From Escherichia coli (GTDB taxonomy: Bacteria > Pseudomonadota > Gammaproteobacteria > Enterobacterales > Enterobacteriaceae): 6,146 bases of DNA. The DNA is taken from the NCBI RefSeq assembly GCF_003334355.1, contig NZ_QOWP01000067.1, one strand, 5' to 3'. The notes under the pieces are model-generated. The model was given only the letters and a program-made list of their open reading frames with translations. It did no database searches and was not told where the DNA came from. Of the stretch, positions 1-1,171 are shown piece after piece (position 1 is the stretch's first letter; the number at the start of each line of letters is the position of its first letter). A program made the position numbers and the translations under genes.

Positions 1-77
1 AAAGGGCGTTTATTCTTCCTATACGTTGTCGGCAGCGGGCCAAAAAGGAATACGTCCATGCCCATCGAGGTGAAACC
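1..77. repeat. Terminal redundancy, copy A (identical to 6070-6146, offset 6069 bp)
   Basis: Direct comparison: 'aaagggcgtttattcttcctatacgttgtcggcagcgggcc...gtgaaacc' occurs at both window ends; match runs to the last base, so repeat length is at least 77 bp. Confidence 0.9.
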
Positions 78-269
78 GGCTGTGAGCGCGGGTTCAAGCA
101 TATAGCCCGACAGGCGCGTATCCTTGCCGATCACGACACGATGGCGGTGGTCACCGCGACGAAAGACACGGCCAGCCGCCATGCCGACGCGCAAGGCGGT
201 TTCCGCCGTCATCGCGCCTTCGTTGGCTTTGCCACGAATACCGTCTGTGCCGAAATATTTGCGCACCAT
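27..269 (-). pseudogene. glmM: Truncated phosphoglucosamine mutase gene (5' fragment, about 81 codons of GlmM-like sequence) abutting the ISCR2 oriIS end
   Basis: Minus-strand translation from ATG at 269-267 gives [81 protein letters not shown], which follows the GlmM N-terminus as I recall it (E. coli [14 protein letters not shown]...); resemblance is lost after about position 27. Truncated glmM next to sul2 and ISCR2 is a known arrangement. Confidence 0.8.
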
Positions 270-355
270 AAGGTCGATTATCCTGTCGTCGGGTCGCCCT
301 CAAAGGGGACATGCCTGCTGAACCGCGAATATAGAGAAATATCCCGAATGTGCAG

Positions 356-1171
356 TTAACGAATTCTTGCGGTTTCTTTCAGCGCCGCCAATACCGCCAG
401 CCCGTCGCGCAAGGGGCGCGGCTCGTGTGTGCGGATGAAGTCAGCTCCACCTGCGGCGGCGGCAAGCTCTGCAGCGAGTGTCGCGGCCCCGACATCCCCC
501 GGACCACGGCCTGTGAGCGCGCGCAGAAAGGATTTGCGCGAAACAGACAGAAGCACCGGCAAATCGAAGCGCAGCCGCAATTCATCGAACCGCGCCAGCA
601 CCGAGAGCGAGGTTTCGGGAGCAGCCCCCAGAAAAAACCCCATGCCGGGATCAAGGACAAGGCGGTTGCGTTTGATACCGGCACCCGTCAGCGCCGCGAT
701 GCGCGCGTCAAAGAACGCCGCAATGTGATCCATGATGTCGCCAGCGGGTGCCTCGCGCCGATCTGCCTGCCCGTCTTGCACCGAATGCATAACGACGAGT
801 TTGGCAGATGATTTCGCCAATTGCGGATAGAACGCAGCGTCTGGAAAACCGCGAATATCATTGAGATAGGCCACACCACGCGACAAGGCATAGGCTTGCG
901 TCGCGGGTTGATAACTGTCGAGCGAGACGGGAATGCCATCTGCCTTGAGCGCGTCCAGCACCGGCGCGATACGCGCGATTTCTGTGTCGGACGAAACAGG
1001 CGCGGCGTCGGGATTGCTGGATGCCGGACCGAGGTCGATCACATCTGCCCCCTCGGCCATCAGCTTACGCGCCTGCGCAATGGCTGCGTCTGGCGCCAGA
1101 TACCGGCCTCCATCGGAGAAACTGTCCGAGGTTATGTTGACGATGCCGAAAATGATGAGCGATTTATTCAT
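356..1171 (-). CDS. sul2: Sulfonamide-resistant dihydropteroate synthase Sul2 (271 aa)
   Basis: Full-length ORF MNKSLIIFGIVNITSDSFSDGGRYLAPDAAIAQARKLMAEGADVIDLGPASSNPDAAPVSS...LKETARIR, recognised from memory as Sul2; high-GC coding stretch contrasting with the backbone. Confidence 0.95.
   Translation of the reverse strand: MNKSLIIFGIVNITSDSFSDGGRYLAPDAAIAQARKLMAEGADVIDLGPASSNPDAAPVSSDTEIARIAPVLDALKADGIPVSLDSYQPATQAYALSRGVAYLNDIRGFPDAAFYPQLAKSSAKLVVMHSVQDGQADRREAPAGDIMDHIAAFFDARIAALTGAGIKRNRLVLDPGMGFFLGAAPETSLSVLARFDELRLRFDLPVLLSVSRKSFLRALTGRGPGDVGAATLAAELAAAAGGADFIRTHEPRPLRDGLAVLAALKETARIR

Follow-up and report, generated by a model that had tools for sequence, protein, structure and literature searches.

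How did sul2 and ISCR2 come to lie in the backbone of a small ColE1-type plasmid of Escherichia coli, and where precisely does the acquired DNA begin and end? The original prediction for the 6,146 nucleotides analyzed here (the window) was that an ISCR2, truncated glmM and sul2 module had been inserted into a ColE1 backbone by one-ended rolling-circle capture. The window spans a circular molecule of 6,069 bp plus a 77-bp terminal overlap, with positions 1..77 being 100% identical to 6070..6146 at a spacing of 6069. Deposited 6,069-bp records match it at 100% identity; NZ_LT985307.1 and CP038387.1 are identical over its full length, and 18 records cover at least 80% of it. The window is thus a complete plasmid of ColE1 type that confers sulfonamide resistance and belongs to the p9123 family, in the "sul2-CR2 (ISCR2/ISVsa3)" configuration. 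p9123 itself is 99.9% identical over the shared segment 315-4772, and the backbone as well as its sul2 and CR2 junctions are common to p9123, pCERC2, pCERC1 and the window. The sul2-side joint region was found in 181 records and the CR2-side joint region in 173. Unlike p9123, where an inverted repeat of Tn5393 adjoins position 4772, the window carries a complete ISCR2 and ΔglmM and, as predicted, no strA-strB in either the ORF list or the plasmid record comparison. These small ColE1-type resistance plasmids are the 'RelN_RNA type 1' of Branger 2019, a family also treated in Anantham & Hall 2012. All plasmids of the p9123 family carry sul2 and the family is classed as relaxase-negative, with the sul2-ISVsa3 configuration making up about 20% of it and being the predicted precursor of sul2-strA-strB (PMC6807383). 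The 6.07-kb plasmid type, its ISCR2-ΔglmM-sul2 arrangement and the relation to sul2-strA-strB are already established.

The predicted ColE1-type backbone was borne out by an RNAI antisense RNA at 1509..1610 on the minus strand (Rfam RF00106, 73.9 bits, E 1e-12, against a gathering score of 47). Because neither a rom/rop nor a MOB relaxase ORF was present in the six-frame ORF list of the window, the replicon is best called 'ColE1-like' and not ColE1. The predicted difference in base composition also holds, with a GC content of 59.5% for the module vs 47.6% for the backbone.

All three predicted genes were recovered. sul2 (356..1171, minus strand) encodes a sulfonamide-insensitive dihydropteroate synthase of 271 amino acids matched over its full length by the NCBIfam Sul2 profile (615 bits, cutoff 575), and this drug-insensitive enzyme confers sulfonamide resistance. 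ΔglmM (27..269, minus strand) retains 81 codons from the 5' end of a phosphoglucosamine mutase gene that is truncated by the oriIS end of ISCR2, and covers positions 1-77 of the 442 of the glmM model (E 4e-31); linkage of sul2 to glmM and a Rhodobiaceae origin have been described (PMC6335563). rcr2 (4367..5860, plus strand), the transposase gene of ISCR2 (ISVsa3), was recognized from the ORF list, profile searches and RefSeq annotation; its 497-residue product is a probable IS91-like HUH transposase. It matches the NCBIfam ISCR clade Ia profile at E 1e-201 (670.8 bits, under the cutoff of 925) and the IS91 profile at E 9e-31 (107 bits, under the cutoff of 125), and the identical protein WP_001120888.1 is named ISVsa3/IS91-like transposase in several RefSeq records. 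sul2 and rcr2 are convergent.

Like other ISCR2/ISVsa3 copies (IS91-like rolling-circle elements; Toleman 2006), the window has a complete transposase gene as well as terIS- and oriIS-type ends. The oriIS-side end, GGCGTTTATTCTTCCTATACG, lies at 6074-6094 (5-25 after the wrap) within 6074..6095 on the plus strand. At about 6095, which corresponds to position 26, the element stops and directly adjoins the glmM fragment as had been predicted, and floR/DUF3363 contexts of ISCR2 diverge from the window after 6095-6097. The putative terIS, GGGAGTGACGGGCACTGGC (4248..4266, plus strand), is an exact 19-mer match to the published sequence (PMC9376610) starting 119 bp upstream of rcr2. Matching among ISCR2 contexts starts at 4244 or at 4248/4249, the latter in some LysR-adjacent copies, and both the terIS and the oriIS end fall at limits of conservation between contexts. 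The 5' boundary of ISCR2 had been expected at 4324-4366, a stretch that turned out to be the internal rcr2 promoter, with a -10 element (TAGACT, 4328..4333, plus strand) and an overlapping LexA box (CTGTATGTAAACACAG, 4332..4347, plus strand), both motifs being as defined in bioRxiv 10.1101/2025.11.21.689736. The real left end is the joint 4243|4244, about 100 bp further upstream.

In the predicted rolling-circle event, ISCR2 would have brought sul2 by IS91-like one-ended transposition, leaving terIS as the left joint and an arbitrary stop as the right one. An intact rcr2, the terIS 19-mer at 4248-4266 together with the LysR-adjacent copies that start matching at 4248/4249, and the lack of inverted repeats and target duplications are what such an event would leave behind. 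In IS91 and ISCR models, however, replication proceeds from oriIS through rcr2 towards terIS and DNA past terIS would be carried. Here sul2 and ΔglmM lie beyond oriIS, so that such a copy would not include them, and oriIS is internal to the block instead of being at a junction. Further, there is no experimental demonstration of ISCR transposition, and LexA binds the promoter of rcr2, which shows almost no activity (bioRxiv 10.1101/2025.11.21.689736). Although the window resembles ISCR2/ISVsa3 in its parts, its junctions give no sign of self-movement: the block is limited by an att core on one side and by a deletion joint on the other.

The block itself looks like the CR2-sul2 unit, the right end of genomic island GIsul2, a unit also treated in Nigro & Hall 2011 and Harmer 2017. 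rcr2, ΔglmM and sul2 stand in canonical order and orientation, collinear with GIsul2 copies. The gene order rcr2 > ΔglmM < sul2, the left att core and the placement of terIS relative to rcr2 are as in the characterized unit (Zhang 2022, PMC9376610), and a GIsul2 copy on an Acinetobacter baumannii plasmid is nearly identical to the block in sequence. No full core was found at the integrase end of the GIsul2 copy in an A. baumannii pAB3-like plasmid. GIsul2 is bounded by att sites and not by inverted repeats, its integrase excises and integrates CR2-sul2 at these sites (at low frequency also at a relaxed TGGG site), and integrase-dependent mobility of the intact unit has been demonstrated by experiment (PMC9376610).

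At the left junction the window reads AATGTAA|GAGTGGGA|GTGACGG. The 8-bp GAGTGGGA is the attLR-type att core of GIsul2 (4244..4251, plus strand), occurs only once in the window and contains the first acquired base, so that the block begins exactly like the attLR of a GIsul2 copy. The core lies 116-123 bp upstream of the rcr2 start codon at 4367, inside the range of 112-130 bp that defines attLR, and overlaps the published terIS. The left att site is a hybrid whose left arm has been replaced by plasmid sequence. The proposed terIS end falls within 4 bp of the left joint, and a single base, G4244, separates the 'att core' from the 'terIS' end.

The right junction, GGTGATCC|GTTTCATG at 1267|1268, falls within the predicted range of about 1172-1300. 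It is a blunt deletion joint without shared bases and is common to all family members. ATTAG, present in both parents, was considered as microhomology and rejected since it is not retained. Only 96 bp upstream of sul2 are kept (1172..1267, minus strand), and a weak promoter-like match occurs there at 1211-1182. The canonical unit continues for a further 207 bp to attR in IncC and RSF1010-type contexts, with attR described 304 bp upstream of sul2 (PMC9376610); in the window, no attR with a GAGTGGGA core is present about 304 bp upstream of sul2. RSF1010-type sul2-strA-strB clusters share sul2 and the upstream arm with the window, and there the arm likewise stops inside the att core (AGAGTGGG|GGGGG), next to repC. 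In contrast to the window, these contexts keep the full 303-bp arm and strA-strB, and their replicon is IncQ instead of ColE1-type. Measured against these longer arms, the right end is a truncation, or secondary deletion, and not the original end, which speaks against an arbitrary rolling-circle stop. Unlike the CR2-sul2 unit of GIsul2, the block has lost the last 207 bp including attR and should, on this analysis, no longer be excisable by the integrase.

As predicted, no recognizable repeats, inverted or direct, flank the block. Neither terminal inverted repeats nor a target-site duplication were found at its ends (4244 and 1267), and the empty site described below shows replacement instead of duplication. 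This bears on a further scenario, in which a larger transposon with inverted repeats at its ends delivered the block. We found nothing in its favor: Tn5393 plays a part solely in the p9123 form, which is later, neither 4244 nor 1267 has inverted repeats at or near it, and right up to both joints the flanking DNA runs on as in the sul2-free plasmids. Such a carrier is hardly credible here. The original prediction had named a larger known transposon with defined inverted repeats as the finding that would overturn it, and the result comes close: the larger known element does exist as GIsul2, but it is bounded by att sites and has no inverted repeats.

The empty site could be rebuilt, as had been suggested, from relatives devoid of the module. 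In four sul2-free plasmids a lysozyme-like bacteriocin gene contains the sequence AATGTAA-CAGTGGGG-ATTGG. AATGTAACAGTGGGGATTGG occurs at this position in every one of them, and 1,092 bp separate the two joints. They are 99.4-99.9% identical to the window over the shared stretches of 1268-4250, with two of the four spanning the whole backbone. These relatives were recovered only by tblastn with the truncated ORF; a DNA search with 3780-4250 returned only family members and short promoter-level matches to ColA-like plasmids. pRM005_1 (3,727 bp) was rejected as an empty-site candidate as it carries ISCR2. The module was indeed acquired, yet not by simple insertion: 1,092 bp of ancestral backbone have given way to a 3,093-bp block (4244..6069/1..1267). 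AGTGGG occurs once only in the 4,068-bp empty-site plasmid, at the junction, and just 0.26% of its 8-mers match the att core at six or more of eight positions.

The interrupted gene survives as a fusion ORF (3934..4323, plus strand), with its first 103 codons (to 4243) derived from a 260-residue T4-lysozyme-like bacteriocin candidate and its last 26 from CR2. A putative colicin-type promoter with two overlapping imperfect LexA-box-like motifs lies upstream (3866..3899, plus strand), and 3806-3907 shows about 77-85% DNA similarity to ColA and other Col-like plasmids. The lysozyme relationship of the candidate is weak (Pfam i-E ~1e-3, PDB E ~0.02, PHROG endolysin E 2e-8), and NCBIfam profiles gave no match for either the 260-aa protein or the 199-aa protein of the neighboring gene. 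By its sequence, the ancestral backbone would resemble pesticin/colicin-type Col plasmids in encoding a protein with a glycine-rich N-terminus and a T4-lysozyme-like domain. The candidate and its convergent neighbor, which by eye has an N-terminal hydrophobic signal-like segment, are reminiscent of pesticin and its periplasmic immunity protein, and we infer bacteriocin and immunity functions for the ancestral genes from these likenesses. In the window, unlike in pesticin/colicin-type plasmids, the bacteriocin candidate gene is truncated and the partner gene deleted.

A counterpart of the left joint was found in the Enterobacter cloacae IncF plasmid CP035637.1, which reads ...ACAATA-CAGTGGGG-ATTGG with no base gained or lost. 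This reciprocal joint consists of the attR arm, CAGTGGGG and the rest of the bacteriocin gene, and contains no ISCR2 end. The probe for it hit one PLSDB record, and no exact match was found in metagenome contigs or species-representative genome contigs. An intermediate plasmid with both joints was likewise not encountered in the PLSDB, metagenome and species-representative genome scans. At the left joint G4244 and A4251 are element-type, and at the reciprocal joint the corresponding bases are the target-type C and G. The discriminating bases at the two joints therefore place one conservative exchange immediately 5' of the core. The att core begins with G4244, a position that is C in all four empty-site plasmids; this base is element-derived although it lies outside terIS, and with the conservative reciprocal joint free of an ISCR2 end it counts further against rolling-circle capture, which we now regard as very unlikely.

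A single illegitimate or microhomology-mediated recombination, swapping 1,092 bp of backbone for the 3,093-bp fragment without any site-specific enzyme, would account for the blunt right joint with no recognizable site, and the plasmid has no integrase gene. It could also draw on AGTGGG, the six bases common to element and backbone at the left joint. However, position 4244, just 5' of the shared hexamer, is element-type, and a microhomology joint would keep the backbone C. The element also ends exactly on the att core used in excision of the unit. Finally, an undeleted reciprocal joint exists, which shows that entry of the block and loss of the 1,092 bp were separate steps. We consider this alternative unlikely, if better placed than rolling-circle capture.

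In our view a likely history, and the best explanation of the data, is that CR2-sul2 entered through integrase-type recombination at a pseudo-att site, that a deletion came next and that Tn5393 arrived later in relatives. Conservative site-specific recombination at a pseudo-att site plus a deletion of about 1.29 kb fits the junction pattern, whereas one-ended rolling-circle capture does not. A circular GIsul2 or CR2-sul2 molecule would have recombined conservatively with the pseudo-att site CAGTGGGG, within the T4-lysozyme-like bacteriocin gene of a Col-like plasmid of about 4.07 kb, presumably through a GIsul2-type tyrosine integrase. One exchange could yield both AATGTAA|GAGTGGGA|GTGACGG on the left and ACAATA|CAGTGGGG|ATTGG on the right, of which the latter would survive only in the E. 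cloacae IncF plasmid. About 1,291 bp would have been deleted afterwards: the last 199 bp of the attR arm, plus 1,092 bp of backbone starting at the core-like CAGTGGGG, which held what remained of the bacteriocin gene and the 199-aa gene next to it. This loss would have created the 1267|1268 joint and fixed the block in place. In most relatives, such as p9123, Tn5393 would then have entered rcr2 at 4772 to give sul2-strA-strB-ΔCR2. The junction sequences and the empty site are read directly from the records; the integrase as the agent of exchange and the order of events we infer from them. The window contains no integrase gene, so that the enzyme would have worked in trans or its gene disappeared since. 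In CP035637.1 the CR2 upstream flank is GIsul2 interior; either the whole island or only the unit may thus have entered the small plasmid, and both joints may stem from one event or from two.

For the family as a whole, we lean, with some reserve, towards the view that the p9123-type plasmids, which have spread worldwide and include pCERC1, pCERC2 and the Shigella sonnei spC-type plasmids, descend from a small lysozyme-type bacteriocin plasmid that still occurs in Enterobacter roggenkampii and Klebsiella variicola. These plasmids would have gained sul2 by one GIsul2-integrase-type event at a pseudo-att site whose codons align with catalytic Thr26-Ile27-Gly28 in T4 lysozyme, locked in by the 1.29-kb deletion that removed attR. 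Our search of the open-access literature found no paper linking p9123 with GIsul2, and parts of the junction mapping may already have been published. As a plasmid, the finding is ordinary and adds nothing new; the modest refinement is the definition of its junctions at the base level, a small but concrete data point in the debate over rolling-circle transposition as a means by which ISCR2 might mobilize resistance genes at all. In this plasmid, one of the commonest among small sul2 plasmids, the acquired DNA starts at an att core and stops at a deletion joint, and public records contain the empty site as well as the reciprocal joint. Taken together, these features favor integrase-mediated capture and would explain why the block is now immobile in its backbone. 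If true, this would be a natural case of the GIsul2 integrase, and not the ISCR2 transposase, spreading CR2-sul2 units.

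The window begins and ends with an exact 77-bp repeat (1-77 duplicates 6070-6146) and thus represents a whole 6,069-bp circle read past its start, with features at its two ends contiguous. Megablast searches against PLSDB returned 100% full-length matches to 6,069-bp E. coli plasmids (NZ_LT985307.1 and NZ_CP038387.1) and ~99.6-99.8% matches to 6.0-kb plasmids of Salmonella, Citrobacter, Shigella and Klebsiella. RNAI (1509-1610, minus strand; Rfam) identifies the replicon as ColE1-type, while rom and relaxase ORFs were absent among the window ORFs. The acquired module carries full-length sul2 (356-1171, minus strand; NCBIfam, 615 bits, above cutoff), a glmM fragment encoding the first 81 residues of phosphoglucosamine mutase (27-269, minus strand; model positions 1-77 of 442, E 4e-31) and rcr2 (4367-5860, plus strand). 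The 497-aa Rcr2 product is identical to WP_001120888.1, annotated as ISCR2/ISVsa3 transposase in several records. At the gene level, the original prediction of an ISCR2/truncated glmM/sul2 module in a ColE1 backbone is therefore correct, including its higher GC content (59.5% vs 47.6% for the backbone) and the lack of strA-strB anywhere in the window. ISCR2 copies in floR/DUF3363 contexts match only to 6095-6097, placing the ISCR2 3' limit at ~6095 (26 after wrapping), so that the oriIS end directly adjoins the glmM fragment, as had been proposed. Linkage of sul2 and glmM is known to mark sul2 that was mobilised from Rhodobiaceae (PMC6335563).

Comparison with relatives lacking the module allowed the empty site to be reconstructed. 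Four sul2-free plasmids from Enterobacter roggenkampii and Klebsiella variicola were used as references: pKAM546_6 (4,053 bp), NZ_CP096196.1 (4,068 bp), pK666_5k and p8_KVTMDU (5,966 bp each). They are 99.4-99.9% identical to window 1268-4250 over the stretches in common, and NZ_CP096196.1 aligns collinearly and without gaps to the entire window backbone. At the left joint all four read AATGTAA-CAGTGGGG-ATTGGTCGC whereas the window reads AATGTAA-GAGTGGGA-GTGACGGGCACTGGC, which makes G4244 the first acquired base; the following AGTGGG (4245-4250) is common to both parents. This joint lies ~100 bp upstream of the ISCR2 5' boundary originally placed at 4324-4366, a region which instead represents the internal rcr2 promoter. 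There, a LexA box (CTGTATGTAAACACAG, 4332-4347) overlaps the -10 element TAGACT (4328-4333), an arrangement recently described for ISCR2 (bioRxiv 10.1101/2025.11.21.689736). The right joint falls exactly at 1267|1268 (GGTGATCC|GTTTCATG), within the anticipated range of about 1172-1300. Past 1267, IncC and RSF1010-type contexts continue with 207 bp more of identical sequence, and in an IncC record this sul2-upstream arm ends ...CTTGTTTACAATA-GAGTGGGA, the attR site of a genomic island, GIsul2. The right end in the window is thus a truncation. A further 1,092 bp found between the two joints in the empty-site plasmids are missing from the window. Neither inverted repeats nor target duplications were found, in keeping with the reported lack of recognisable repeats at the boundaries, and an ordinary transposon was ruled out on this basis.

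The block is GIsul2's terminal segment, known as the CR2-sul2 unit, lacking the attR end. This follows from GAGTGGGA at 4244-4251 being the 8-bp core common to attL, attLR and attR of GIsul2, from the exact match of the published CR2 terIS (GGGAGTGACGGGCACTGGC) at 4248-4266, starting mid-core, and from a GIsul2 copy in an A. baumannii plasmid that reads ...TTTACAATC-GAGTGGGA-GTGACGG at the equivalent place, with island genes before it. Zhang et al. (PMC9376610) demonstrated excision and integration of the CR2-sul2 unit by the GIsul2 integrase via attLR and attR, with low-frequency use of relaxed targets such as TGGG. In the RSF1010-type record CP035776.1 (~4368-4380), the sul2-upstream arm ends within the GIsul2 att core (AGAGTGGG|GGGGGTCAGCC) beside repC, a sequence arrangement hinting that sul2 also used an att-like site to enter the backbone of IncQ plasmids.

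Three lines of evidence favour conservative site-specific recombination, with a pseudo-att site as the target. The target CAGTGGGG agrees with the att core at 6 of 8 positions; its AGTGGG is the sole copy in the 4,068-bp empty-site plasmid, both strands considered, and only 21 of 8,136 8-mers (0.26%) there match the core this closely. Further, the base 5' of AGTGGG is the element-type G4244 in the window and C in all four empty-site plasmids. A microhomology joint would not leave an element base in this position and is hence not what would be expected; G4244 also falls outside terIS. Finally, the reciprocal joint is present in CP035637.1, an 86.6-kb E. cloacae IncF/blaIMP-8 plasmid, as ...CTTGTTTACAATA-CAGTGGGG-ATTGGTCGCATGC... 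(ACAATA-CAGTGGGG-ATTGG), where the segments 6001-6482 and 6475-6776 comprise 482 bp that match the 3' part of the bacteriocin gene described below at 100% identity, and the full sul2-upstream arm. The core is element-type at the left joint and target-type at this right joint, with zero bases gained or lost. Both joints would result from one reciprocal crossover directly 5' of the core, and a later ~1,291-bp deletion (199 bp of arm plus the 1,092 bp that begin at the core-like site) would generate the p9123-family right joint. Sequence upstream of CR2 in CP035637.1 belongs to the interior of GIsul2, with a resolvase and a small ORF, so either the whole island or the unit alone may have entered the small plasmid. 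The CP035637.1 piece may have been gained through a cointegrate. An IS1-like end, recognised by eye, lies on the far side of the 482-bp fragment.

In IS91-type models, replication proceeds from oriIS through the transposase gene to terIS, and one-ended events take DNA past terIS. The one-ended rolling-circle capture by ISCR2 originally proposed is unlikely, since sul2 and the glmM fragment sit beyond an oriIS internal to the block, the block is bounded by an att core on one side and a blunt deletion on the other, and no ISCR2 end occurs at the reciprocal joint. ISCR transposition is moreover not known from experiment, and the rcr2 promoter is almost silent even when de-repressed (bioRxiv 10.1101/2025.11.21.689736).

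The gene interrupted by the block is intact in the sul2-free plasmids (2123-2905, minus strand, in relative L005) and encodes a 260-aa, T4-lysozyme-like bacteriocin candidate whose N-terminus is rich in glycine. The motif HHEGARNNMYLDTANNVTVGIG in this protein aligns to T4 lysozyme residues 6-37, with the Glu-Asp-Thr spacing of Glu11, Asp20 and Thr26; scores were E ~0.02 for PDB, i-E ~1e-3 for Pfam Phage_lysozyme and Pesticin, and E 2e-8 for PHROG endolysin. The convergent gene (L005 1497-2096, plus strand) encodes a 199-aa protein with a hydrophobic start, signal-peptide-like by eye, for which a family match was not found. From these sequence features, a candidate pesticin-like bacteriocin with a putative periplasmic immunity protein is a reasonable reading. 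In the window, the gene retains 103 native codons, which run into 26 codons derived from CR2 sequence (3934-4323, plus strand) to form the "hypothetical protein" beside ISCR2. Reading of the sequence at 3866-3899 predicts a promoter of colicin style containing two imperfect LexA-box-like motifs that overlap (CTGTATATAAACACAT and ATTGTTATAAATACAG), and at the DNA level 3806-3907 is ~77-85% similar to Col-like plasmids including ColA. A 244-bp fragment of the gene (3948-4191) recurs with 100% identity in several large plasmids of IncF type (4001-4244 in NZ_CP026764.1), with blaTEM-1 on one side and tet(A) on the other; it may be p9123-family debris taken into resistance regions. NZ_CP117306.1, a 3,727-bp Salmonella Derby "plasmid" of a different replicon cluster, is made up of ISCR2 and the bacteriocin ORF in its truncated form; it may represent either an assembly artefact or a deletion derivative.

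Elsewhere in the backbone, non-coding positions 2830-2917 contain an 11-bp unit (TACATCACTT[T/A]) repeated in tandem ~6-8 times. Window 2338-3239 is unmatched in the 5,966-bp relatives, which carry MobC/MbeB/MbeD genes absent from the window. A 162-aa ORF (3276-3764, minus strand) is labelled differently between records ("entry exclusion protein 1" or "hypothetical"); the sole family match, to a model of a plasmid replication DNA-binding protein, is weak and falls below cutoff (E 3e-11).

The window and p9123 have 315-4772 in common, and in p9123 what we take to be the Tn5393 terminal repeat (GGGGTCGTTTGCGGGAAGGGG...) abuts 4772, inside rcr2. At the sequence level, this agrees with the order predicted by Anantham and Hall, as cited in PMC6807383, with sul2-ISVsa3 as precursor of sul2-strA-strB-ΔISVsa3. 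Branger et al. named the family "RelN_RNA type 1" or "p9123" and reported sul2 in all members, in the sul2-ISVsa3 configuration, with sul2-strA-strB-ΔISVsa3 in 80% (PMC6807383). The plasmid is thus a well-known object and the finding is already known. No open-access paper mentioning GIsul2 and p9123 together was found, and two points, the relatives free of sul2 and the joints as resolved to the base, may add to published knowledge of this family.
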